Program-made: the position numbers and the translations under genes
Shown here: one piece after another, positions 1 through 12,544 of the stretch
Layout: each line of letters starts with the position of its first letter
Position numbering within the stretch: position 1 is the first letter of the stretch
Source: a virus
Length of the DNA stretch: 12,544 nucleotides
Reading direction: 5' to 3' (one strand)
Virus genome (UHGV): UHGV-0329897
The notes under the pieces: model-generated
What the model was told of the DNA's origin: nothing
The model's database searches: none
The model's input: the letters and a program-made list of their open reading frames with translations, nothing else

Positions 1-2
1 AG

Positions 3-83
3 GTTGCAGAGGCTATGGCCCTGGTACGAGCGCTGAACAAAATGACGAAAGCAGGTATGCCTGAAAGCGTGCGTATTGCCTGA
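3..83 (+). CDS. 3' end of an unidentified ORF entering from the left window edge (ends ...KAGMPESVRIA, TGA at 81-83)
   Basis: Open frame from position 3 to the TGA at 81-83 with no internal stop. It converges on the truncated gam. No family recognised; too short to judge. Confidence 0.25.
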   Translation, partial: VAEAMALVRALNKMTKAGMPESVRIA

Positions 84-108
84 AAACACAACCCGCTACG
101 GGGGAGAC

Positions 109-282
109 TTACCCGAAATCTGATTTATTCAACAAAGCCTCCTGAATGTAATAAGCGTTCATGGCTGAACTCCTGAAATAGCTGTGAAAATATCGCCCGC
201 GAAATGCCGGGCTGATTAGGAAAACAGGAAAGGGGGTTAGTGAATGCTTTTGCTTGATCTCAGTTTCAGTATTAATATCCAT
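109..282 (-). pseudogene. gam: Truncated gam: first 47 codons of lambda Gam, then 10 unrelated codons and a stop
   Basis: Minus-strand translation from the ATG at 282 gives [47 protein letters not shown], matching the lambda Gam N-terminus as I recall it. It then diverges ([10 protein letters not shown], stop at 109-111) instead of continuing DRLEAQSW... The start overlaps the kil 3' end as in lambda. Confidence 0.6.
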
Positions 283-380
283 TTTTTATAAGCGTCGACG
301 GCCTCACGAAACATCTTTTCATCGCCAATAAAAGTGGCGATAGTGAATTTAGTCTGGATAGCCATAAGTGTTTGATCCAT
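237..380 (-). CDS. kil: Kil (host cell-division inhibitor), 47 aa
   Basis: Internal ATG at 380 of the 89-aa track ORF gives [47 protein letters not shown]. Lambda-like position overlapping the 3' end of cIII. Confidence 0.8.
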
Positions 381-513
381 TTTTTGGGACTCCTGGCTGA
401 TTAAGTATGTCGATAAGGCGTTTCCATCCGTCACGTAATTTACGGGTGATTCGTTCAAGTAAAGATTCGGAAGGGCAGCCAGCAACAGGCCACCCTGCAA
501 TGGCATATTGCAT
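349..513 (-). CDS. cIII: CIII (protects CII from FtsH), 54 aa
   Basis: Hand translation from the ATG at 513 (minus): [54 protein letters not shown], stop at 349-351. Absent from the ORF track because it is under 60 aa. Confidence 0.85.
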   Translation of the reverse strand: MQYAIAGWPVAGCPSESLLERITRKLRDGWKRLIDILNQPGVPKNGSNTYGYPD

Positions 514-585
514 GGTGTGCTCCTTATTTATACATAACGAAAAACGCCTCGAGTGAAGCGTTATTGGTATGCGGTAACGCCGCGC

Positions 586-954
586 TCAGGCGGCTTTGAT
601 AGTCATATCATCTGAATCAAATATTCCTGATGTATCGATATCGGTAATTCTTATTCCTTCGCTACCATCCATTGGAGGCCATCCTTCCTGACCATTTCCA
701 TCATTCCAGTCGAACTCACACACAACACCATATGCATTTAAGTCGCTTGAAATTGCTATAAGCAGAGCATGTTGCGCCAGCATGATTAATACAGCATTTA
801 ATACAGAGCCGTGTTTATTGAGTCGGTATTCAGAGTCTGACCAGAAATTATTAATCTGGTGAAGTTTTTCCTCTGTCATTACGTCATGGTCGATTTCAAT
901 TTCTATTGATGCTTTCCAGTCGTAATCAATGATGTATTTTTTGATGTTTGACAT
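586..954 (-). CDS. ea10: Ea10-like protein of the pL operon (122 aa)
   Basis: 122-aa minus-strand ORF with ATG at 954, lying between cIII and ral as ea10 does in lambda and of the same length. Identity is by position and size rather than remembered sequence. Confidence 0.65.
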   Translation of the reverse strand: MSNIKKYIIDYDWKASIEIEIDHDVMTEEKLHQINNFWSDSEYRLNKHGSVLNAVLIMLAQHALLIAISSDLNAYGVVCEFDWNDGNGQEGWPPMDGSEGIRITDIDTSGIFDSDDMTIKAA

Positions 955-974
955 CTGTTCATATCCTCATAGAT

Positions 975-1000
975 AAAAAATCGCCCTCACACTGGAGGGC
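975..1000 (-). terminator. Putative intrinsic terminator in the pL operon between ral and ea10
   Basis: 6-bp GC stem gccctc/gagggc (983-1000) followed on the minus strand by a T6 run (A-run 975-980 on the plus strand). Confidence 0.4.
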
Positions 1001-1157
1001 AAAGAAGATTTCCAATAATCAGAACAAGTCGGCTCCTGTTTAGTTACGAGCGACATTGCTCCGTGTATTCACTCGTTGGAATGAATACACAGTGCAGTGT
1101 TTATTCTGTTATTTATGCCAAAAATAAAGGCCACTATCAGGCAGCTTTGTTGTTCTG

Positions 1158-1337
1158 TTAACCAAGTTCTCTGGCAATCATTGCCGTCGTTCGTATTGCC
1201 CATTTATCGACATATTTCCCATCTTCCATTACAGGAAACATTTCTTCAGGCTTAACCATGCATTCCGATTGCAGCTTGCATCCATTGCATCGCTTGAATT
1301 GTCCACACCATTGATTCTTATCAATAGTCGTAGTCAT
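1158..1337 (-). CDS. ral: Ral (restriction alleviation), 59 aa, C-terminally shortened relative to lambda Ral
   Basis: Hand translation from the ATG at 1337 (minus): MTTTIDKNQWCGQFKRCNGCKLQSECMVKPEEMFPVMEDGKYVDKWAIRTTAMIARELG then TAA. The frame would continue QNNKAA to a TGA if that TAA were a sense codon. Confidence 0.7.
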   Translation of the reverse strand: MTTTIDKNQWCGQFKRCNGCKLQSECMVKPEEMFPVMEDGKYVDKWAIRTTAMIARELG

Positions 1338-1407
1338 ACGGATAGTCCTGGTACTGTTCCATTACATCCTGCGGATGCTCTTCGAACTCTTCAAATTCTT
1401 CTTCCAT
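1321..1407 (-). CDS. Small acidic ORF (28 aa, MEEEFEEFEEHPQDVMEQYQDYPYDYDY) immediately upstream of ral
   Basis: ATG at 1407 (minus); the stop overlaps the ral start region. It sits where lambda has a small ORF upstream of ral. Short, so low confidence. Confidence 0.3.
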   Translation of the reverse strand: MEEEFEEFEEHPQDVMEQYQDYPYDYDY

Positions 1408-1531
1408 ATATCACCTTAAATAGTGGATTGCGGTAGTAAAGATTGTGCCTGTCTTTTAACCACATCAGGCTCGGTGGTTCTCGTGTACCCCTACAGCGAG
1501 AAATCGGATAAACTATTACAACCCCTACAGT

Positions 1532-2086
1532 TTGATGAGTATAGAAATGGATCCACTCGTTATTCTCGGACGAGTGTTCAGTAATGAACCTCTGGAGAGA
1601 ACCATGTATATGATCGTTATCTGGGTTGGACTTCTGCTTTTAAGCCCAGATAACTGGCCTGAATATGTTAATGAGAGAATCGGTATTCCTCATGTGTGGC
1701 ATGTTTTCGTCTTTGCTCTTGCATTTTCGCTAGCAATTAATGTGCATCGATTATCAGCTATTGCCAGCGCCAGATATAAGCGATTTAAGCTAAGAAAACG
1801 CATTAAGATGCAAAACGATAAAGTGCGATCGGTAATTCAAAACCTTACAGAAGAGCAATCTATGGTTTTGTGCGCAGCCCTTAATGAAGGCAGGAAGTAT
1901 GTGGTTACATCAAAACAATTCCCATACATTAGTGAGTTGATTGAGCTTGGTGTGTTGAACAAAACTTTTTCCCGATGGAACGGGAAGCATATATTATTCC
2001 CTATTGAGGATATTTACTGGACTGAATTAGTTGCCAGCTATGATCCATATAATATTGAGATAAAGCCAAGGCCAATATCTAAGTAA
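1532..2086 (+). CDS. sieB: SieB superinfection exclusion protein (184 aa)
   Basis: 184-aa plus-strand ORF converging on N (stops at 2084-2086 and 2087-2089), the lambda arrangement. Hydrophobic N-terminal region (MIVIWVGLLLL..., VFVFALAFSLAI) as expected for SieB. Confidence 0.8.
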   Translation: MMSIEMDPLVILGRVFSNEPLERTMYMIVIWVGLLLLSPDNWPEYVNERIGIPHVWHVFVFALAFSLAINVHRLSAIASARYKRFKLRKRIKMQNDKVRSVIQNLTEEQSMVLCAALNEGRKYVVTSKQFPYISELIELGVLNKTFSRWNGKHILFPIEDIYWTELVASYDPYNIEIKPRPISK

Positions 2087-2410
2087 CTAGGTAAGAGGAA
2101 TCGATTTTCCCTTAATTTTCTGGCGTCCACTGCATGTTATGCCGCGTTCGCCAGGCTTGCTGTACCATGTGCGCTGATTCTTGCGCTCAATACGTTGCAG
2201 GTTGCTTTCAATCTGTTCGTGGTATTCAGCCAGCACTGTAAGGTCTATCGGATTCAGTGCGCTTTCTACTCGTGATTTCGGTTTGCGATTCAGCGAGAGA
2301 ATAGGGCGGTTAACTGGTTTTGCGCTTACCCCAACCAACAGGGGATTTGCTGCTTTCCATTGAGCCTGTTTCTCTGCGCGACGTTCGCGGCGGCGTGTTT
2401 GTGCATCCAT
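2087..2410 (-). CDS. N: N transcription antitermination protein (107 aa)
   Basis: Internal ATG at 2410 of the track ORF gives MDAQTRRRERRAEKQAQWKAANPLLVGVSAKPVNRPILSLNRKPKSRVESALNPIDLTVLAEYH..., including the arginine-rich boxB-binding N-terminus. The upstream extension in the track is leader sequence. Confidence 0.9.
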   Translation of the reverse strand: MDAQTRRRERRAEKQAQWKAANPLLVGVSAKPVNRPILSLNRKPKSRVESALNPIDLTVLAEYHEQIESNLQRIERKNQRTWYSKPGERGITCSGRQKIKGKSIPLT

Positions 2411-2520
2411 CTGGATTCTCCTGTCAGTTAGCTTTGAGTAACGCGCCGTGATGCTTATCCCCACGGTTGCTGTCTTGCAGCTGCATTTCGCGCTACTCAA
2501 AGCTTTCTGCTTTGAATGCT

Positions 2521-2551
2521 GCCCTTCTTCAGGGCTAAATTTTTAAGAGCC
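2521..2551 (-). promoter_or_regulatory. nutL (boxA + boxB) in the N leader
   Basis: Minus strand reads GCTCTTAAAAATTTAGCCCTGAAGAAGGGC: a boxA-like GCTCTTA followed by the boxB hairpin GCCCTGAAGAAGGGC (plus-strand 2521-2535). Confidence 0.75.
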
Positions 2552-2584
2552 TCACCTTCAATGGTGGTTAGTGCGTCCTGCTGA

Positions 2585-2654
2585 CGAGCTAAGTATCACC
2601 GCTAGTGGTATTTGTGTCAACACCGCTAGAGATATTTTATCACCGCAAATGGTT
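2585..2654 (-). promoter_or_regulatory. pL promoter with operators oL1 (2594-2610), oL2 (2618-2634), oL3 (2638-2654)
   Basis: Three 17-bp lambda-type operator sites (tatcaccgctagtggta, caacaccgctagagata, tatcaccgcaaatggtt). On the minus strand the -35 TTGACA (2615-2620) and -10 GATACT (2592-2597) direct transcription towards N. Confidence 0.8.
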
Positions 2655-2809
2655 ATCTGTATGTTTTTTATATGGATTTATTTTTTCGAGTGAGTGTATT
2701 GCCTCGGCGATGTAAGGAGAGATCAGAATTGCGTTGTTTAGTGAGTTGTATCTATTTATTTTCCAATAAATACAATTGGTTATGTGTTTTTAGGTGGGGC
2801 GATCGTGAG

Positions 2810-2839
2810 GCAAAGAAAACCCGGCGCTGAGGCCGGGTT
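2810..2839 (-). terminator. Intrinsic terminator closing the cI-adjacent cargo operon (tIMM-like position)
   Basis: Perfect 8-bp stem aacccggc/gccgggtt (2818-2839) with a 6-nt loop, starting 3 nt after the stop of the 250-aa ORF and followed on the minus strand by TTTCTTTG. Confidence 0.6.
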
Positions 2840-2842
2840 GTA

Positions 2843-3595
2843 TTATGCTGCAAGTCTCTTAATCCAAGTCTCTCTTTTGGAGAATGGTAGAACTTGGCTT
2901 GATTCATGGAAGAGTAAGGAGAGTTGTTGCATTTGATCACCAATTGCTTCGCTGTCTATAACAACAAATCTGTTGTTATACTCCTCACTTGAAGCTTTAA
3001 GATCAATTAGTTTCCCAAGCAATGAGTAAGCACTATTCCAGCTTCCTCCGTGTTTCACGCTTGATGTAAAAACGTATTTAGGTATGTCGGTTTTTATTGT
3101 TACAGGGACGGTAATTTGATGTCCACTCAAGCCATATACGTTTTCACGAAGAGAAAGTGCCTCTCTAAGCTCTGTGTGATATAGATAATCAATAACCATA
3201 CTTTCAAACTTTTCAGCTTGAACTGGCTGATACCAGTCTAACGACAAAGTTGATGCGAGTATACCAGCTCTAATTATGTTCGATGTAATCGCACCGACAT
3301 CCTTTTCTGTTGCCCAAGCAATGATTTCTCCTCGAGCATTGAGTTCTGCGCCTTCTTTAAGCAGTAATTGTCGTATCTCATCAAGTCGTTTTTTGGTAAG
3401 CGAGATCCCTCTTGCCTCCATATTCATTAAGGCATCGCATCTGTCACTAACTAAATACCTACCATTGACTTCACGGATAAAGGCACCGACATGCTCTCCA
3501 TCATCACAGTAAGTGAATGGACTGATAATTCTCAAGGTCTTGCCTATTGGATGGCATTCGAAACCTAGTTGTGAGATCACTGTTGAGCACATCAT
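2843..3595 (-). CDS. Hypothetical protein (250 aa), distal gene of the cI-adjacent cargo operon; no family recognised
   Basis: Long minus-strand ORF starting ATG ATG at 3595/3592; its start overlaps the upstream gene's stop (ATGA). Immediately followed by a terminator. No obvious transmembrane segment or catalytic motif that I can name. Confidence 0.7.
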   Translation of the reverse strand: MMCSTVISQLGFECHPIGKTLRIISPFTYCDDGEHVGAFIREVNGRYLVSDRCDALMNMEARGISLTKKRLDEIRQLLLKEGAELNARGEIIAWATEKDVGAITSNIIRAGILASTLSLDWYQPVQAEKFESMVIDYLYHTELREALSLRENVYGLSGHQITVPVTIKTDIPKYVFTSSVKHGGSWNSAYSLLGKLIDLKASSEEYNNRFVVIDSEAIGDQMQQLSLLFHESSQVLPFSKRETWIKRLAA

Positions 3596-4149
3596 ATTCC
3601 AAACCCCATTTGCCCCGACTCATCTTCAAGCGGTAAAGGTATTCTCCCAGAGTAAGTTATGTTCAGATGTTTACAGAAGTAATTCCAATACCCTACCAGG
3701 TCATCTGGGTTTATGTCATCTTCGATTGGAAACGCTATTCTATCACTATAGTATCCAGCTTCTTCATAGTATACATGGTAATGAGCACCGTAAATGATAT
3801 CTTGGTACTTCGGATGATCGACCTTGTAACTATTCGTGTGTTTGTCAAAGTGATAGGTATCTACCGCGAAAACCCTCTTGTTATGATAGAAAGCAATAAT
3901 ATTTATTTTAGGGTAAGAAATCGGGTCATCAGGTTCTGAATCCTGATCTGGTTTCCATTTCAGTTCAAACTTTAGCCCTTGTATAGGTATACAATCCTCA
4001 TCCAAGGGGATGATATGAGCTTGTAGCCACATATCAGAGCGACTTGGTTTCTGTTTCCATTTAACGCCAGAAAAGTTAACTATTTTTTTACAATAAAGTA
4101 CTTTATCAACTTCTACTTGGCTTGGCTGATAATCATCTATTTTTGCCAA
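3592..4149 (-). CDS. Hypothetical acidic, aromatic-rich protein (185 aa), proximal gene of the cI-adjacent cargo operon; no family recognised
   Basis: Minus-strand ORF beginning 39 nt downstream of the cI stop. The codon at 4149-4147 is TTG (track prints M) preceded by AGGGCGG 7 nt upstream; the first in-frame ATG is codon 40. Contains acidic clusters (PDQDSEPDDP, EDDINPDD, LEDESGQ). Confidence 0.65.
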   Translation of the reverse strand: MAKIDDYQPSQVEVDKVLYCKKIVNFSGVKWKQKPSRSDMWLQAHIIPLDEDCIPIQGLKFELKWKPDQDSEPDDPISYPKINIIAFYHNKRVFAVDTYHFDKHTNSYKVDHPKYQDIIYGAHYHVYYEEAGYYSDRIAFPIEDDINPDDLVGYWNYFCKHLNITYSGRIPLPLEDESGQMGFGI

Positions 4150-4188
4150 TGTTTACCGCCCTGTAAATTGTAGATAAAAGTGGTTTCA

Positions 4189-4905
<717 letters not shown>

Positions 4906-4912
4906 TTAAATC

Positions 4913-4990
4913 TATCACCGCAAGGGATAAATATCTAACACCGTGCGTGTTGACTATTTTACCTCTAGCGGTGATAATAATTGCATGTAC
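4913..4990. promoter_or_regulatory. Right operator and divergent promoters: oR3 (4913-4929), oR2 (4936-4952), oR1 (4960-4976), pR (-35 TTGACT 4950-4955, -10 GATAAT 4973-4978), pRM on the opposite strand
   Basis: Three 17-bp operator sites (tatcaccgcaagggata, taacaccgtgcgtgttg, tacctctagcggtgata) between the cI and cro starts; strong SD AGGAGG before the cro ATG. Confidence 0.85.
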
Positions 4991-4993
4991 TAA

Positions 4994-5203
<210 letters not shown>

Positions 5204-5210
5204 ATAACAC

Positions 5211-5242
5211 CGCTCTTACACATCACAGCCCTGAAAAAGGGC
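5211..5242 (+). promoter_or_regulatory. nutR (boxA CGCTCTTACA 5211-5220; boxB GCCCTGAAAAAGGGC 5228-5242)
   Basis: Canonical boxA followed by the boxB hairpin, just downstream of cro. Confidence 0.8.
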
Positions 5243-5254
5243 ATCCAATTAAAC

Positions 5255-5286
5255 CACACCTATGGTGTATGCATTTATTTGCATAC
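5255..5286 (+). terminator. tR1 region (Rho-dependent terminator zone) with a 7-bp palindrome
   Basis: Position between nutR and cII; palindrome gtatgca/tgcatac at 5267-5286. A Rho-dependent site cannot be proven from sequence alone. Confidence 0.4.
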
Positions 5287-5299
5287 ATTCAATCAATTG

Positions 5300-5350
5300 T
5301 TATCTAAGGAAATACTTACATATGGTTCGTGCAAACAAACGCAACGAGGC
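5300..5350 (-). promoter_or_regulatory. pRE region with CII-binding direct repeat TTGC-N6-TTGC
   Basis: Minus strand reads TTGCGTTTGTTTGC (plus-strand 5331-5344) overlapping the cII start codon region, the lambda pRE -35 arrangement. Confidence 0.55.
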
Positions 5351-5615
5351 ACTACGAATCGAGAGTGCGTTGCTTAACAAAATCGCAATGCTTGGAACTG
5401 AGAAGACAGCGGAAGCTGTGGGAGTTGATAAGTCGCAGATCAGCAGGTGGAAGAGAGACTGGATTCCCAAGTTCTCAATGCTGCTTGCTGTTCTTGAATG
5501 GGGGGTCGTTGACGACGACATGGCTCGATTGGCGCGACAAGTTGCTGCGATTCTCACCAATAAAAAACGCCCGGCGGCAACCGAGCGTTCTGAACAAATT
5601 CAGATGGAGTTCTGA
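5322..5615 (+). CDS. cII: CII transcriptional activator (97 aa)
   Basis: ATG at 5322 gives MVRANKRNEALRIESALLNKIAMLGTEKTAEAVGVDKSQISRWKRDWIPKFSMLLAVLEWGVVDDDMARLARQVAAILTNKKRPAATERSEQIQMEF. The track ORF begins at an upstream alternative start. Confidence 0.95.
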   Translation: MVRANKRNEALRIESALLNKIAMLGTEKTAEAVGVDKSQISRWKRDWIPKFSMLLAVLEWGVVDDDMARLARQVAAILTNKKRPAATERSEQIQMEF

Positions 5616-5637
5616 GGTAATTACTGGATCTATCAAC
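5561..5637 (-). ncRNA. oop: oop antisense RNA (about 77 nt) with its t0 terminator
   Basis: Minus strand from 5637 reads GTTGATAGATCCAGTAATGACCTCAGAACTCCATCTGGATTTGTTCAGAACGCTCGGTTGCCGCCGGGCGTTTTTTAT, the sequence I know as lambda oop/t0: GC hairpin plus T6 tract, antisense to the cII 3' end. Confidence 0.75.
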
Positions 5638-5647
5638 AGGAGTCATT

Positions 5648-6547
5648 ATGACAAATACAGCAAAAATACTCAACTTCGGCAGAGGTAACTTTGCCGGACA
5701 GGAGCGTAATGTGGCAGATCTCGATGATGGTTACGCCAGACTATCAAATATGCTGCTTGAGGCTTATTCGGGCGCAGATCTGACCAAGCGACAGTTTAAA
5801 GTGCTGCTTGCCATTCTGCGTAAAACCTATGGGTGGAATAAACCAATGGACAGAATCACCGATTCTCAACTTAGCGAGATTACAAAGTTACCTGTCAAAC
5901 GGTGCAATGAAGCCAAGTTAGAACTCGTCAGAATGAATATTATCAAGCAGCAAGGCGGCATGTTTGGACCAAATAAAAACATCTCAGAATGGTGTATCCC
6001 TCAAAACGAGGGAAAATCCCCTAAAACGAGGGATAAAACATCCCTCAAATTGGGGGATTGCTATCCCTCAAAACAGGGGGACACAAAAGACACTATTACA
6101 AAAGAAAAAAGAAAAGATTATTCGTCCGAGAATTCTGGCGAATCCTCTGACCAGCCAGAAAACGACCTTTCTGTGGTGAAACCGGATGCTGCAATTCAGA
6201 GCGGCAGCAAGTGGGGGACAGCAGAAGACCTGACCGCCGCAGAGTGGATGTTTGACATGGTGAAGACCATCGCGCCATCAGCCAGAAAACCGAATTTTGC
6301 AGGGTGGGCTAACGATATCCGCCTGATGCGTGAACGTGACGGACGTAACCACCGCGACATGTGCGTGCTGTTCCGCTGGGCATGCCAGGACAACTTCTGG
6401 TCCGGTAACGTGCTTAGCCCGGCCAAACTCCGCGACAAGTGGACCCAGCTCGAAATCAACCGTAACAAGCAACAGGCAGTCGTGACAGCCAGCAAACCAA
6501 AACTCGACCTGACAAACACAGACTGGATTTACGGGGTGGATCTATGA
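5648..6547 (+). CDS. O: Replication initiator O (299 aa)
   Basis: Lambda-type O translation (MTNTAKILNFGRGNFAGQERNVADLDDGYARLSNMLLEAY...), with the origin iterons embedded in the coding sequence. Confidence 0.95.
   Translation: MTNTAKILNFGRGNFAGQERNVADLDDGYARLSNMLLEAYSGADLTKRQFKVLLAILRKTYGWNKPMDRITDSQLSEITKLPVKRCNEAKLELVRMNIIKQQGGMFGPNKNISEWCIPQNEGKSPKTRDKTSLKLGDCYPSKQGDTKDTITKEKRKDYSSENSGESSDQPENDLSVVKPDAAIQSGSKWGTAEDLTAAEWMFDMVKTIAPSARKPNFAGWANDIRLMRERDGRNHRDMCVLFRWACQDNFWSGNVLSPAKLRDKWTQLEINRNKQQAVVTASKPKLDLTNTDWIYGVDL
5996..6130. repeat. ori-lambda: four about 18-bp iterons (5997-6014, 6017-6033, 6041-6057, 6064-6081) followed by an AT-rich unwinding region
   Basis: Direct repeats tccctcaaaacgagggaaa / tcccctaaaacgaggga / tccctcaaattggggga / tccctcaaaacaggggga, then acaaaagaaaaaagaaaagattatt. 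Confidence 0.9.
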
Positions 6548-7245
6548 AAAACATCGCCGCACAGATGGTTAACTTTGACCGTGAGCAGATGCGCCGGATC
6601 GCCAACAACATGCCGGAACAGTACGACGAAAAGCCGCAGGTACAGCAGGTAGCGCAGATCATCAACGGTGTGTTCAGCCAGTTACTGGCAACTTTCCCGG
6701 CGAGCCTGGCTAACCGTGACCAGAACGAAGTGAACGAAATCCGTCGCCAGTGGGTTCTGGCTTTTCGGGAAAACGGGATCACCACGATGGAACAGGTTAA
6801 CGCAGGAATGCGCGTAGCCCGTCGGCAGAATCGACCATTTCTGCCATCACCCGGGCAGTTTGTTGCATGGTGCCTGGAAGAAGCATCCGTTATCGCCGGA
6901 CTGCCAAACGTCAGCGAGCTGGTTGATATGGTTTACGAGTATTGCCGGAAGCGAGGCCTGTATCCGGATGCGGAGTCTTATCCGTGGAAATCAAACGCGC
7001 ACTACTGGCTGGTTACCAACCTGTATCAGAACATGCGGGCCAATGCGCTTACTGATGCGGAATTACGGCGCAAGGCTGCCGATGAACTGACCTGTATGAC
7101 AGCGCGAATTAACCGTGGTGAGGCGATCCCTGAACCAGTAAAACAACTTCCTGTCATGGGCGGTAGACCTCTAAATCGTGCACAGGCTCTGGCGAAGATC
7201 GCAGAACTCAAAGCTAAGTTCGGACTGAAAGGAGCAAGTGTATGA
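6544..7245 (+). CDS. P: Replication protein P (DnaB helicase loader), 233 aa
   Basis: Lambda-type P translation (MKNIAAQMVNFDREQMRRIANNMPEQYDEKPQVQQVAQIINGVF...). Start overlaps the O stop (ATGA). Confidence 0.95.
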   Translation: MKNIAAQMVNFDREQMRRIANNMPEQYDEKPQVQQVAQIINGVFSQLLATFPASLANRDQNEVNEIRRQWVLAFRENGITTMEQVNAGMRVARRQNRPFLPSPGQFVAWCLEEASVIAGLPNVSELVDMVYEYCRKRGLYPDAESYPWKSNAHYWLVTNLYQNMRANALTDAELRRKAADELTCMTARINRGEAIPEPVKQLPVMGGRPLNRAQALAKIAELKAKFGLKGASV

Positions 7246-7532
7246 CGGGCAAAGAGGCAATTATTCATTACCTGGGGACGCATAATAGCTTCTGTGCGCC
7301 GGACGTTGCCGCGCTAACAGGCGCAACAGTAACCAGCATAAATCAGGCCGCGGCTAAAATGGCACGGGCAGGTCTTCTGGTTATCGAAGGTAAGGTCTGG
7401 CGAACGGTGTATTACCGGTTTGCTACCAAGGAAGAACGGGAAGGAAAGATGAGCACGAACCTGATTTTTAAGGAGTGTCGCCAGAGTGCCGCGATGAAAC
7501 GGGTATTGGCGGTATATGGAGTTAAAAGATGA
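7242..7532 (+). CDS. ren: Ren (96 aa)
   Basis: MTGKEAIIHYLGTHNSFCAPDVAALTGATVTSINQAAAKMARAGLLVIEGKVWRTVYYRF... in the lambda position after P; start overlaps the P stop. Confidence 0.9.
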   Translation: MTGKEAIIHYLGTHNSFCAPDVAALTGATVTSINQAAAKMARAGLLVIEGKVWRTVYYRFATKEEREGKMSTNLIFKECRQSAAMKRVLAVYGVKR

Positions 7533-7557
7533 CCATCTACATCACTGAGCTAATAAC

Positions 7558-7590
7558 AGGCCTGCTGGTAATCGCAGGCCTTTTTATTTG
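7558..7590 (+). terminator. tR2 intrinsic terminator
   Basis: Hairpin aggcctgc-tggtaatc-gcaggcct followed by TTTTTATTTGG, matching the lambda tR2 sequence as I recall it. Confidence 0.8.
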
Positions 7591-7605
7591 GGGGAGAGGG
7601 AAGTC

Positions 7606-8046
7606 ATGAAAAAACTAACCTTTGAAATTCGATCTCCAGCACATCAGCAGAACGCCATTCAAGCTATCCAGCAAATCCTTCCAGACCCAACCAAACCAAT
7701 CGTAGTAACCATTCAGGAACGCAACCGCAGCTTAGACCAGAATCGAAAGCTTTGGGCTTGCCTTGGTGACGTCTCTCGTCAGGTTGAATGGCATGGTCGC
7801 TGGCTGGATGCAGAAAGCTGGAAGTGCGTTTTTACAGCAGCATTAAAGCAGCAGGACGTTGTTCCTAACCTTGCCGGGAATGGCTTTGTGGTAATAGGCC
7901 AGTCAACCAGCAGGATGCGTGTAAGCGAATTTGCGGAGCTATTAGAGCTTATACAGGCATTCGGTACAGAGCGTGGCGTTAAGTGGTCAGACGAAGCGCG
8001 ACTAGCTCTCGAATGGAAAGCGCGATGGGGAGATCGGGCTGCATGA
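7606..8046 (+). CDS. ninB: NinB (Orf-family recombination mediator), 146 aa
   Basis: ATG at 7606 with SD GAGGGAAG gives MKKLTFEIRSPAHQQNAIQAIQQILPDPTKPIVVTIQERNRSLDQNRKLWACLGD... The track start at 7588 is a TTG. Confidence 0.9.
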   Translation: MKKLTFEIRSPAHQQNAIQAIQQILPDPTKPIVVTIQERNRSLDQNRKLWACLGDVSRQVEWHGRWLDAESWKCVFTAALKQQDVVPNLAGNGFVVIGQSTSRMRVSEFAELLELIQAFGTERGVKWSDEARLALEWKARWGDRAA

Positions 8047-8570
8047 CTATCAAATCAAATACGCCAGCACACGACAAGGACTGCTGGCAAACGCCGCTTT
8101 GGCTTTTTGATGCACTGGATATTGAGTTTGGATTCTGGCTGGATTCGGCAGCGAGCGACAAAAATGCTCTGTGCGCTCACTGGTTAACTGAGGCCGACGA
8201 CGCGCTAAATTCTGAGTGGATAAGCCACGGTGCAATCTGGAATAACCCACCGTACAGCAATATCAGGCCGTGGGTGGAAAAAGCCGCTGAGCAGTGCATA
8301 CAACAGCGACAGACGGTAGTGATGCTTGTGCCAGAGGATATGTCTGTCGGATGGTTCAGCAAGGCTCTGGAGAGTATTGACGAAGTTCGCATCATCACTG
8401 ATGGACGGATTAATTTTATCGAACCATCGACAGGGCTGGAGAAGAAGGGAAACAGCAAAGGTTCCATGCTGCTGATTTGGCGACCGTTCATCAGTCCTCG
8501 ACGGATGTTTACTACCGTATCCAAAGCGGCATTGATGGCGATCGGGCAGGGCGTCAGGAGGGCTGCATGA
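8043..8570 (+). CDS. Phage orphan DNA N6-adenine methyltransferase (phage T1 Dam-like family), 175 aa
   Basis: ATG at 8043 overlaps the ninB stop (ATGA). Contains the N-terminal DxxCWQTP motif and the NPPY catalytic motif (WNNPPYSN), occupying the slot where lambda has ninC. No adjacent restriction endonuclease gene. Confidence 0.8.
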
Positions 8571-8743
8571 GACGACAGCGGCGAAGTTTCACCGACATCA
8601 TCTGCGAAAACTGCAAATACCTTCCAACGAAACGCTCCAGAAATAAACGCAAGCCAATCCCAAAAGAATCTGACGTAAAAACCTTCAACTACACGGCTCA
8701 CCTGTGGGATATCCGGTGGCTAAGACATCGTGCGAGGAAATGA
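8567..8743 (+). CDS. ninE: NinE (58 aa)
   Basis: ATG at 8567 overlaps the methyltransferase stop; translation [58 protein letters not shown]. The track ORF starts at an upstream alternative codon. Confidence 0.8.
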
Positions 8744-9087
8744 CAATGGATTATTCACAGTTAAGTGATTTTGAAATTAACCGAATGGTAGGAGACATAA
8801 TTTTTAAAGGCCTTTGGGCATGTAAGCCTGAAACATCAGGGAATAACACCAACAAATGGTATTACGGAAATGCCGATGTAAGTCTTGAGCCATTAAACCC
8901 TTTGCCTGACTACTGCAATGATCCGAGCGCTTCATGGCCGATTATTGAGAAATACAGGATTTCTATCTTAGACCAGTTAACTGAATGGTGTGTGGATGCA
9001 AAAGGCGTAAGCCCAATATTTGATACCAGACCTCTCCGCGCCGCCATGATTGTCTTTCTCCTGATGCAGGAGGCCAATAATGCTTAG
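8740..9087 (+). CDS. Hypothetical nin-region protein (115 aa), function unknown
   Basis: ATG at 8740 overlaps the ninE stop (ATGA), with a second ATG at 8746 and GAGGAAA upstream. Translation [36 protein letters not shown]...; no motif I can assign. Confidence 0.6.
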
Positions 9088-9274
9088 CCCATCTCAATCC
9101 CTTCAATACCTGAAAGGAAGCATAGAGCGGGCTTCAATGTGCACAGAGTGGATTCTATCTAGGTTTAGCGCATACAGAAGATTGCCGGTAAAGGGCATGC
9201 CAAGCAAGTCGATGCTGCATATGCAAAAGAATGCGCGCTGGAAGGTATGGCGAGAACACAGGTTATCTGGCTGA
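9080..9274 (+). CDS. NinF-like N-terminus (about 18 codons) running out of frame into ybcO-like 3' sequence; likely a chimeric product
   Basis: Strong SD AGGAGG 7 nt before the ATG at 9080. The first residues [18 protein letters not shown] resemble NinF; the remainder is R/K/W/H-rich, as expected for wrong-frame translation of the ybcO-like remnant. Confidence 0.4.
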
Positions 9275-9297
9275 AAGAGGGGGTTATTAAGGCGTGA
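9169..9297 (+). pseudogene. 3' remnant of a ybcO-like gene (rusA-upstream gene) lacking a start codon
   Basis: This frame reads [42 protein letters not shown] and stops overlapping the rusA GTG start (GTGA), but has stops at 9160 and 9166 and no start codon. The C-terminus matches my recollection of DLP12 YbcO. Confidence 0.4.
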
Positions 9298-9656
9298 ATA
9301 CCTACAGCATCACATTACCCTGGCCTCCGAGCAATAATCGCTATTACCGCCATAATCGCGGGCGCACGCACGTCAGCGCAGAGGGGCAGGCATACCGCGA
9401 TAACGTCGCCCGAATCATTAAAAACGCAATGCTGGATATCGGCCTGGCTATGCCTGTGAAAATCCGCATTGAGTGCCACATGCCGGATCGCCGTCGCCGT
9501 GACCTGGATAATCTGCAAAAAGCCGCTTTTGACGCACTCACTAAAGCAGGTTTCTGGCTGGATGATGCTCAGGTCGTTGATTACCGCGTTGTGAAGATGC
9601 CTGTTACCAAAGGTGGGAGGCTGGAACTGACCATCACCGAAATGGGGAATGAATGA
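9294..9656 (+). CDS. rusA: RusA Holliday-junction resolvase (120 aa)
   Basis: GTG start at 9294; [120 protein letters not shown] matches RusA of prophage DLP12 as I recall it. Confidence 0.95.
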
Positions 9657-9793
9657 TGTTTGAGTTTAATATGGCAGAACTTCTTCGCCACCGCTGGGGG
9701 CGTCTGCGCTTATATCGTTTCCCCGGTTCTGTTTTGACCGATTACCGAATACTGAAGAATTACGCCAAAACCCTGACAGGAGCAGGAGTATGA
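9653..9793 (+). CDS. ylcG: YlcG-like small protein (46 aa)
   Basis: ATGATG at 9653 overlaps the rusA stop; hand translation [46 protein letters not shown], stop 9791-9793. Below the ORF-track size cutoff. Confidence 0.7.
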
Positions 9794-9878
9794 AGTCAGA
9801 GATAACAATCAACTAATACTGTTTTGTTGATTTTTGCTTGTAATTGGCGTTCTGGTCTGATTTTTGTGGAGTAAGTTG

Positions 9879-10262
9879 ATGCGTGATATTCAGATGGTTC
9901 TTGAGCGTTGGGGAGCGTGGGCGGCTAATAATCATGAAGATGTGACCTGGTCGTCCATTGCCGCCGGTTTTAAGGGATTAATTACTTCAAAAGTAAAATC
10001 TCGCCCGCAATGTTGTGACGATGACGCGATGATTATTTGCGGGTGCATGGCCCGTCTGAAAAAGAACAACAGCGATTTGCACGATTTATTAGTAGATTAT
10101 TATGTAGTCGGTATGACATTCATGTCACTGGCAGGTAAGCATTGCTGCTCTGATGGTTATATCGGGAAAAGGTTACAGAAGGCTGAGGGCATAATTGAAG
10201 GGATGTTAATGGCATTAGATATCCGGTTAGAGATGGATATCGTTGTTAATAACTCTAATTAA
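9879..10262 (+). CDS. quuD: Q-type late-gene antiterminator QuuD (127 aa)
   Basis: ATG at 9879 gives [71 protein letters not shown]..., matching DLP12 QuuD as I recall it. The track ORF starts at an upstream GTG. Confidence 0.85.
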
Positions 10263-10450
10263 TATGCCAATTGTTTACTAAAAATTATTAAAAATGGGGC
10301 GTTGCAACGCCCCCAAAAATAAAGGGTAATATATAACAGAAGGTTTATATAGTTAGAAGCAAGGTTGTGCTCCTAAAGGAAGTGGCTTGAGGGAGCCACT
10401 TATATGTTGGGGAGGCAAAGCCTCCCGCAACATATCTTTTAGTAATCAAA
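10263..10450. promoter_or_regulatory. Late regulatory region downstream of Q (expected PR'/qut) with convergent hairpin terminators
   Basis: Hairpins at 10296-10313 (ggggcgttg/caacgcccc, U-tract on the minus strand), 10380-10401 (aagtggct/agccactt) and 10402-10435 (about 15-bp bulged stem followed by CTTTT on the plus strand). They lie between the convergent quuD and nmpC stops. Exact PR' hexamers not assigned. Confidence 0.45.
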
Positions 10451-11533
10451 TTAGAACTGGTAAACCATACCTACAGCAACGATATCATCGGTAGCAACGC
10501 CAGATGCTTTCGTGAAATCGCTCTTATCAATCAGGTTGATTTTGTAATCAACAAAAGTGGACATATTTTTGTTGAAGTAATAGGTTGCACCTACATCAAT
10601 ATATTCAACCAGGTCCTGATCACCCCACGCACCCAAGTCTTTTCCTTTAGATTGCAGGTAAGCAACGGACGGACGCAGACCGAAGTCGAACTGATATTGT
10701 GCAACTACTTCGAAGTTTTGTGCTTTGTTGGCAATATGGTTATTACCAAAAACAGTCATGTTCTGGGTTTCAGAATAGGTGGTAGCCAGATAGATGTTGT
10801 TCGCATCATATTTCAGACCAGCTGCCCATACTTCAGCATTTTGACCAGATGCATTCAGGCTGTTGTTACCGTAGATAACCTGATTATTAGTGCGGTCAGA
10901 TTTAGCATAGGTTGCACCTACACCGAATCCTTCATACTCATAAGTAGTGGAGAAACCGAAACCATCACCATTAGCTTCAGTTACGTCAGTGCGGTCATTT
11001 TTACCCTGATACTGAGCAGCAAAGTTCAGACCATCAACCAGACCAAAGAAGTCGTTGTTACGATAAGTTGCAACACCAGTGGTGCGACCAGTCATGAACA
11101 CATCTGTTTGGGTCCAGGTATCGCCACCGAATTCTGGCAGAACGTCAGTCCACGCACCGATGTCGTATGCTACACCGTAGTTACGGCCGTAATCGATTGA
11201 GCCGTAGTCACCGAATTTCAGGCCTGCAAATGCAAGACGGGTTTTGTCTTTGGAGGAACCTTGAGATTCAGCGCGGTTGCCTTTGAATTCATATTCCCAC
11301 TGACCGAAACCAGTCAGTTGATCGTTGATTTGGGTTTCACCTTTGAAGCCAAGACGGGCATAAGTAGTATCACCATCATCTGCATCATTAGAGGAGAAGT
11401 AGTGCTTAGCATTAACTTTCCCGTACAGATCCAGCTTGTTACTGTCTTTATTATAAATTTCAGCTGCCTGAGCAGACATCGCCATCAGTACTGATGCAGC
11501 TACAGCAGAAATTGCCACTGTTAATTTTTTCAT
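10451..11533 (-). CDS. nmpC: Outer-membrane general porin, NmpC/OmpD-type (360-aa precursor)
   Basis: ATG at 11533 with SD AAGGG; signal peptide [23 protein letters not shown] then AEIYNKD...; C-terminal beta-barrel signature ending ...VAVGMVYQF. Uninterrupted reading frame. The track start at 11593 is an upstream alternative start. Confidence 0.9.
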
Positions 11534-11960
11534 CGTGAGCCCTTTTTTTGAACTATTATTAAAAAATGATGTCACTGCGCGATAAATATTCATCTAATCA
11601 ATGTGATTATTTCAAGATGTAAGTTTTGGTTTCTCATTTGATTTGTGAAGTAGATCTCTATTTTTATCTGAACTTTTTCTATCGAATCCTATTCATGGCT
11701 CTTGGCTGAATAAAAATAAATCTATTAGCCAATTTATATTAATGGCTGTTATTTATAAGTGCTCTATAATTTGAAGGTTCAATTTAAATCGGCTAAAAAT
11801 AACGCTGGAAATTATTTGTTGGTTATTTGTTGAGATTTTCTTATGTATTTGTAGTGGTGTTTTCAATACTCGGTAGCATTCTCGCAAATATCATTTAGTG
11901 GTTTACGTACGTAAAAAATTGGTTATGCTGTTAAGAGTGGTTACTTCGTCACACAGCTTA

Positions 11961-11985
11961 AACCCGCCACTGAGCGGGTTTTTTG
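11961..11985 (+). terminator. Orphan intrinsic terminator in the nmpC upstream region
   Basis: 7-bp stem aacccgc/gcgggtt with a 6-nt loop followed by T6 on the plus strand; no plus-strand ORF precedes it. Confidence 0.45.
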
Positions 11986-12106
11986 TACCTGTAAACTTGG
12001 TGCAGTACAGTAAACACGCTGGTGGTCGTGAATACTGACTTTTTATCTTGCTGGCTTTTTAGACAAGAGTTATTGGTATGTCATGTTAACCAGAAGGGAA
12101 AAAGAC

Positions 12107-12304
12107 ATGCTAAAACAGCAAGATATGACCGAAACCGCCAGAGTGGTGTTTAATGAATTGAGCGTCACCGAACCGGCGACTGTCGGGGAAATTGCGCAGA
12201 ATACTTACCTTTCACGTGAACGCTGCCAGTTAATACTGACTCAGCTTGTTATGGCGGGTCTGGCAGATTATCAGTTCGGTTGTTACAGACGCCTTCAGCC
12301 CTGA
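12107..12304 (+). CDS. Small putative winged-helix DNA-binding protein (65 aa; alternative start at 12083 gives 73 aa)
   Basis: ATG at 12107 preceded by AAGGGA at 7-nt spacing. The pattern ...ATVGEIAQNTYLSRERCQLILTQLVMAGLADY resembles wHTH regulators of the IclR/MarR/TrmB type. Stop is embedded in a terminator hairpin. Confidence 0.5.
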   Translation: MLKQQDMTETARVVFNELSVTEPATVGEIAQNTYLSRERCQLILTQLVMAGLADYQFGCYRRLQP

Positions 12305-12316
12305 AGGCTTTTTTAT
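12291..12316 (+). terminator. Intrinsic terminator after the small wHTH ORF
   Basis: Stem gccttca/tgaaggc with loop gccc, followed by TTTTTTATTT. Confidence 0.55.
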
Positions 12317-12454
12317 TTGTGGTAATGGGCGGCTGGTGGGTGTTAGCGGCACCTGCCAGCCATCTGCTCATGCGTTGGGGTCACAAGCAAACCTCAGGCC
12401 CATCTGCTTTGCGCAAAAGCAGAATGAGCCTATCAGAGACAGGCTTAATGATCC

Positions 12455-12544
12455 ATGCTTAATACTGTAAAAATATCCAGTTGTGAGTTAATCAACGCCG
12501 ACTGCCTGGAATTTATCCGGTCGTTACCCGAAAATTCTGTTGAC
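12455..12544 (+). CDS. 5' end (30 codons) of a DNA methyltransferase (N6-adenine/N4-cytosine class), truncated by the window edge
   Basis: ATG at 12455; MLNTVKISSCELINADCLEFIRSLPENSVD is the typical N-terminus of PF01555-type methyltransferases, which usually continues ...LIxTDPPY. The rest lies outside the window. Confidence 0.5.
   Translation, partial: MLNTVKISSCELINADCLEFIRSLPENSVD

Follow-up and report, generated by a model that had tools for sequence, protein, structure and literature searches.

An IS903 insertion in the gam gene of a lambda-immunity prophage

IS903 and gam in lambdoid phages

The disruption of prophage genes by insertion sequences (IS) is routine, and one of the elements known from phages is IS903 (IS903B), a member of the IS903 group of the IS5 family that has been found in HK022 and P7. 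In HK022, the 1,057-bp element is annotated at positions 26601-27657 of NC_002166 and is located in the early-left (pL) operon, with erf and abc2 downstream of it, where it adjoins (HK022 locus L001, 1583-2751) a sequence that is 95.5% identical to positions 973-1084, the ea10-ral spacer, of the window analysed here, by which we mean the whole stretch of 12,544 nucleotides of the virus genome UHGV-0329897. An IS5-family element in the pL operon is also carried by a lambdoid prophage of E. coli PK8277 (NZ_CP080133; L004, 4767-5735), although this insertion is independent of the one described below, is intergenic between cIII and ea10, lies about 400 bp away and leaves gam, bet and exo intact.

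The element at the left edge of the window has the same inverted repeats, DDE transposase and 9-bp duplication as the IS903/IS903B elements of HK022 and P7. Its complete copy, which is seen in a near-identical contig (L015, see below), matches the IS903 of HK022 at 1,057 of 1,057 positions, and both copies lie in the early-left operon of a lambdoid phage. However, the target differs, being a sequence like the ea10-ral spacer in HK022 and codon 48 of gam here, and the orientation of the HK022 element relative to pL transcription is opposite to that in this prophage. The same IS is thus observed in the same operon of two lambdoid phages, at different sites.

Gam is an inhibitor of RecBCD, and its GamS core forms a dimeric DNA mimic. 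The lambda protein NP_040618 corresponds to an ORF of 138 codons, of which residues 41-138 make up the active form, GamS (PMC5218532); the Gam structures 2UUZ, 2UV1 and 5MBV cover residues 40/41-138, and the Pfam family PF06064 covers residues 41-138. How Red, Gam and RecBCD contribute to the growth of lambda has been summarised (PMC12315714), and the gam null mutants of lambda (gam- red+) offer a direct comparison with the prophage, since they affect the same gene, with the same expected loss, and the neighbouring genes kil, bet and exo are as in lambda. In contrast to these mutants, which carry laboratory point, amber or deletion mutations, the prophage carries a natural IS lesion with a possible polar effect on bet and exo, and it has lambda-type cI, N, O and P genes but no rexAB. 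Mechanistically, the locus holds nothing new; the insertion of IS903 into gam is an ordinary event.

The junction between bases 139 and 140

The lambdoid homology of the window begins exactly at base 140, which puts the junction between bases 139 and 140. From this point, positions 140-939 align without gaps to lambda from position 33090, with six mismatches in 800 nt, and the 47 residues encoded by the gam fragment are identical to residues 1-47 of NP_040618; to the left of base 140, the alignment finds nothing that the window shares with lambda. In megablast searches of phage and E. coli records, with either positions 1-1000 or the whole window as the query, all matches likewise start at base 140. 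An earlier, sequence-only reading of this DNA had described gam as truncated after codon 47 at about positions 140-145, and the breakpoint is real, with 47 residues identical to lambda followed by ten residues and a stop, but the alignment to lambda, which that reading had itself proposed, makes it sharper. It was also right that a plus-strand frame converges on the gam ORF and that the DNA past the junction has no relationship to lambda; the function of Gam must be lost. The features of the region are collected in Table 1.

Table 1. Features of the window and their coordinates (IS, insertion sequence; L015, the near-identical contig)
Feature	Position	Strand	Description
Right-hand 139 bp of IS903	1..139	+	Element positions 919-1057; 139/139 identical to HK022 IS903
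IS903 transposase C-terminus	3..83	+	Last 26 codons and stop, VAEAMALVRALNKMTKAGMPESVRIA-stop; identical to HK022 NP_037691
Hybrid ORF	109..282	-	57 aa: 47 gam codons and a 10-codon tail, then stop; ATG start
IS903 18-bp terminal inverted repeat, GGCTTTGTTGAATAAATC	122..139	-	Exact match; outer end of the element
Target-site duplication copy, TCCTGAATG	140..148		9 bp; second copy past the IS, outside the window; flanks both IS ends in L015
gam 5' fragment	140..282	-	143 nt, codons 1-47 and 2 nt of the long ORF; aligned to lambda 33090-33232
GamS start codon, Met41	162..160	-	Only 7 GamS codons left (residues 41-47)
kil, intact	237..380	-	Last pL-operon gene before the insertion that is undisturbed
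N antiterminator	2087..2410	-	107-aa ORF, PF11438 in L015; intact
nutL boxB, GCCCTGAAGAAGGGC	2521-2535	-	Exact match; intact
rexA/rexB position of lambda (cI-N interval)	2843-4149	-	Two genes, 185 aa and 250 aa
OmpC-like porin gene	10451-11593	-	PF00267/PF13609; 360-380 aa, depending on the start; downstream of Q, on the opposite strand
Chi sites, GCTGGTGG	12018-12025, 12332-12339	+ (both)	Right-hand mosaic segment

The DNA to the left of the junction is the end of an IS903 element, and its 139 bases equal the last 139 bases of the IS903 of HK022 with 0 mismatches. In the phage collection, positions 1-139 match IS903 with E = 6e-67, at 100% for HK022 and 99.3% for P7, and the transposase gene of the P7-like phage SJ46 is also a 99.3% match. 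Among the E. coli genomes, where the corresponding value is E = 8e-66, these bases alone match at 4,787 places, spread over 1,372 of 5,426 genomes, with IS903 at up to 46 places per genome; about one quarter of the places are plasmid-borne, and their annotation is that of an IS5-family or IS903B transposase. The 18-bp inverted repeat, which each of the HK022 and L015 copies has at either end, occurs a single time in the window against 0.01 occurrences expected by chance. The converging frame, which ends in ...KAGMPESVRIA-stop and had been taken for part of a replacement gene, is the C-terminus of the IS903 transposase, whose full-length form in L015 contains the DDE transposase domains PF13737 (137 bits) and PF01609 (115 bits). 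The element is identified as IS903 by its terminal repeat, its sequence, its DDE transposase and also, as seen in L015, by its length and the 9-bp duplication. What had been described as a recombination breakpoint is instead the outer end of IS903, at a junction that arose by transposition and duplicated 9 bp of the target. For annotation, the consequence is that positions 1-139 represent the end of a mobile element.

The junction also accounts for the short ORF that begins with the gam start codon. Codon 48 of this hybrid ORF, GAG (Glu), straddles the junction, with GA coming from gam and G from IS903, and the other nine of the ten tail codons, together with the stop, come from the inverted repeat of IS903 read on the opposite strand. 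An exact-protein look-up of the 57-aa product found no gene on record, and the ORF is a pseudogene product, namely gam interrupted by IS903. Upstream of the insertion, the operon is undisturbed: the 47-aa product of kil is identical to a protein that occurs in 24,233 blocks of the collection and is annotated as Kil in relatives, and the genes that lie upstream of kil are undisturbed as well.

The same right junction is found in two further assemblies, the ENA metagenome scaffold L016, which is 100% identical to the window over positions 87-12544, and L017, a Logan assembly of SRR1118457, which covers positions 112-12433 with one mismatch. Both contigs stop inside the IS repeat; short-read assemblies often break or are mis-joined at such repeats. 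Among other loci, the gam site is uninterrupted in 23 of the 23 fetched that cover this part of the gene, and gam (98 aa), bet and exo are intact in all 20 places listed as matches to the 250-aa immunity-region protein or to Kil. The ten relatives listed for the 250-aa protein all have intact gam, bet and exo, and none has an IS there. A 36-nt pattern for the right junction had no match in the GTDB species representatives, IMG/VR or the JGI metagenomes, no BLAST match of the region crossed the junction in complete E. coli genomes, plasmids or phages, and a flexible pattern for the left junction, allowing a duplication of 0-20 bp, had no match in genome contigs. When a synthetic left junction was searched for in the complete E. 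coli genomes, it was likewise absent, and the only match was the different IS5-family insertion of PK8277. Since the same junction occurs in independent assemblies and the site is uninterrupted in all other fetched loci that cover it, the IS903 allele of gam is real, private to one lineage and recent, and it is not a natural short Gam.

The left side of the element

The window opens inside IS903, 918 bp short of the left IS end, and the duplication and the bet and exo genes were seen via L015 (GCA_900450395.1, contig UGFK01000002.1, 4.46 Mb). This contig was found through an exact look-up of the cI protein of the window, which was chosen because, of the mere ten differences between the window and its nearest relative, L010, one base lies in cI. 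The reverse complement of L015 differs from positions 1-12544 by a single mismatch, at base 2591. This base (A in the window, G in UGFK01000002.1) lies in the pL-nutL leader, upstream of N, and L016 shares the base of the window.

In L015, the complete IS903 is flanked on both sides by the duplicated target, and when the IS and one copy of TCCTGAATG are removed, the remaining sequence is identical at 600 of 600 positions to the uninterrupted site of L010 (GCA_012321205.1), the closest relative, which is 99.916% identical to the window over positions 140-11983. The restored site contains the 138-codon gam. The duplication matched what had been predicted beforehand for a simple insertion, and a length of 9 bp is the signature of typical IS903B transposition (PMC13618097). 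Past the IS lies the 3' part of gam, directly followed by bet, whose product is a RecT-type annealase of 261 aa that agrees with lambda Bet at 261/261 positions, and by exo, which encodes a YqaJ-type exonuclease of 226 aa with 222/226 residues as in lambda. Neither gene has internal stops, and beyond exo there are the usual DUF1317, DUF1382, TraR-family and Ea22-family genes.

These data bear on most of what the sequence-only reading had supposed about the left side. It had held bet and exo to be absent or replaced, but both are intact past the 1,057-bp IS in a contig with one mismatch in 12,544 nt, and where it had considered a different recombination module, L015 has lambda-type bet and exo and no alternative module. 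The leftward extension by which it had hoped to name the converging gene leads, in L015, to a complete IS903 transposase and not to a replacement gene. As evidence that would speak against itself, it had named a natural short Gam variant with intact bet and exo further to the left; of this, the intact bet and exo are found, whereas the short Gam is a mutant allele.

The locus is best explained by transposition of IS903 into gam of a lambda-immunity prophage, as a simple insertion with the rest of gam and bet and exo beyond it, to which we assign a probability of roughly 0.93. The 1,057-bp element (IS5 family, DDE transposase) would have jumped into the prophage gam after nt 143 of the long ORF, inside codon Asp48, with its transposase gene oriented against pL transcription, and translation of gam would run into the terminal inverted repeat of the IS, gaining ten extra residues before a stop. 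For the window's own IS, the predicted left junction is GAGCCTCAAGACGATCCTGAATG/GGCTTTGTTGAATAAATCG, 1,057 bp from base 139. To the left of the window, another 918 bases of IS903 would be expected, ending in GATTTATTCAACAAAGCC (the reverse complement of the inverted repeat), and beyond the left IS end TCCTGAATG should be followed by ...CTCAAGACGA (gam codons 48 onward), bet and exo.

It is hardly probable that an IS903-mediated rearrangement, whether a deletion, an inversion or a recombination between IS903 copies, and possibly involving a composite of the Tn903 type, has displaced the 3' part of gam together with bet and exo in the genome from which the window comes. The left IS end does lie outside the window, the many IS903 copies of E. 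coli genomes provide substrates, and the difference at base 2591 means that the window may belong to another isolate of the lineage; however, L015 has a single complete IS, a perfect duplication and a precisely restorable target, and the same junction in L016 and L017 points to one clonal allele. The composite transposon Tn903 was considered as a candidate of its own and rejected, as L015 shows a single IS.

The recombination breakpoint of the sequence-only reading, with the Red module deleted or replaced by unrelated DNA or by another recombination module, is very improbable indeed. Although lambda homology ends abruptly at base 140, with unrelated DNA and a converging ORF to the left, this DNA is an exact IS903 terminus, identical over 139 of 139 bases and ending on the inverted repeat, and L015 continues after 1,057 bp and the duplication with the rest of gam, bet and exo. 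Lambdoid phages are mosaic, and a true joint of this type does exist at 11983/11984 in the window.

A natural short Gam variant or an assembly chimera from repeat collapse has a negligible probability, because the 57-codon ORF, in spite of its ATG start, encodes after the hybrid first codon of its tail an IS inverted repeat, has no Gam domain and yields a product that is not on record, while every relative among the matches listed has a full-length gam, and because, unlike in a chimera, the IS lies complete and between matching duplications in a 4.46-Mb contig, even though IS repeats often break or mis-join assemblies and L016 and L017 end in the repeat.

The true mosaic joint is located just past the terminator of the porin gene, and the segment behind it runs to position 12544. 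In the closest relatives (L002, L005, L009, L010 and L012), the joint is followed by holin and lysozyme genes; in the window, L015, L016 and L017, it is followed by a 65-aa ORF (12107-12304, plus strand) and then by the start of an N6/N4 DNA methyltransferase gene (at about 12456), a module otherwise seen after Q in prophages of the DicB/YdaT type. A second IS was also considered for the right end and rejected, as positions 11984-12544 are an ordinary lambdoid mosaic segment with no second inverted repeat. The OmpC-like porin is a typical lambdoid 'moron'.

Gam, Red and the growth of the phage

Of the 98 residues that make up active GamS, only 7 lie in front of the insertion, and Gam is therefore inactivated. 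The complete GamS core of a functional Gam is absent. The hybrid ORF has no Pfam match at E<=1, whereas the ORF of 138 aa, once restored, reaches 210 bits against PF06064 over residues 41-138. From the structural and family data, the prophage is predicted to be null for Gam.

The consequences for bet and exo depend on transcription from pL. After induction, N-antiterminated pL transcription would read through the IS, so that Bet, Exo, Xis and Int would still be made. A consensus scan for terminators detected a single weak candidate within the IS in the direction of pL transcription, and the count for the whole region does not exceed that of shuffled sequence. HK022, a plaque-forming phage, has the identical IS903 in its own early-left operon. 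Since N and nutL are intact, terminators are not in excess and HK022 offers this precedent, N and nutL are expected to carry pL transcription across the IS, and Red expression would survive the insertion. Convergent transcription from the transposase promoter could lower the expression of bet and exo. The resulting phage would resemble a gam- red+ mutant of lambda, which is viable but whose linear and rolling-circle DNA is exposed to RecBCD. As long as the prophage stays repressed, the insertion is probably neutral.

A defective or domesticated prophage, as the sequence-only reading had suggested, is not what L015 indicates. Its lysis genes are of normal length, and so are the first packaging genes, with 181 aa for Nu1, 641 aa for gpA and 68 aa for gpW; the start of the portal gene is also contained in the locus. 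The normal lengths speak against gross decay among these genes. A different state is seen in L002 (E. coli CUPS03, NZ_CP180690), the closest prophage in the complete-genome collection, in which the genes for the large terminase subunit and the major capsid protein are annotated at 22693-24885 as adjoining partial pseudogenes, which implies a deletion of head genes and thus a defective prophage.

Two other features of the window may be relevant to phage growth and defence. The two Chi sites are a marginal excess, as at least two arise in 12 of 200 shuffles, but they could matter for a gam-null phage that is exposed to RecBCD. Of the two genes at the position of rexA and rexB, the 185-aa product has no Pfam match and the 250-aa product has a weak match to DUF1828; the latter protein occurs in 185 blocks of the collection, with the same context in all ten places listed. 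The two genes may form a putative exclusion or defence cassette.

An adaptive reading of the gam knock-out, as an escape from defences that are triggered by RecBCD inhibition or that target phages carrying an inhibitor, is improbable, and its support consists of nothing beyond the presence of the allele in three assemblies (L015, L016 and L017). P2 Old exclusion and retron-type RecBCD guards are defences of this kind. Gabija has likewise been proposed to target phages that carry RecBCD inhibitors (PMC12407980). If the insertion were adaptive, the intact Red system and the Chi sites at 12018 and 12332 might sustain recombination-dependent growth.

The main value of the analysis is a correction, in that an apparent module-swap breakpoint turns out to be a routine IS hit, with bet and exo still present. 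The prophage adds one more natural case to the lambdoid prophages that are null for gam, and as a wild gam- red+ phage it may possibly be of use in probing defences that sense the inhibition of RecBCD.
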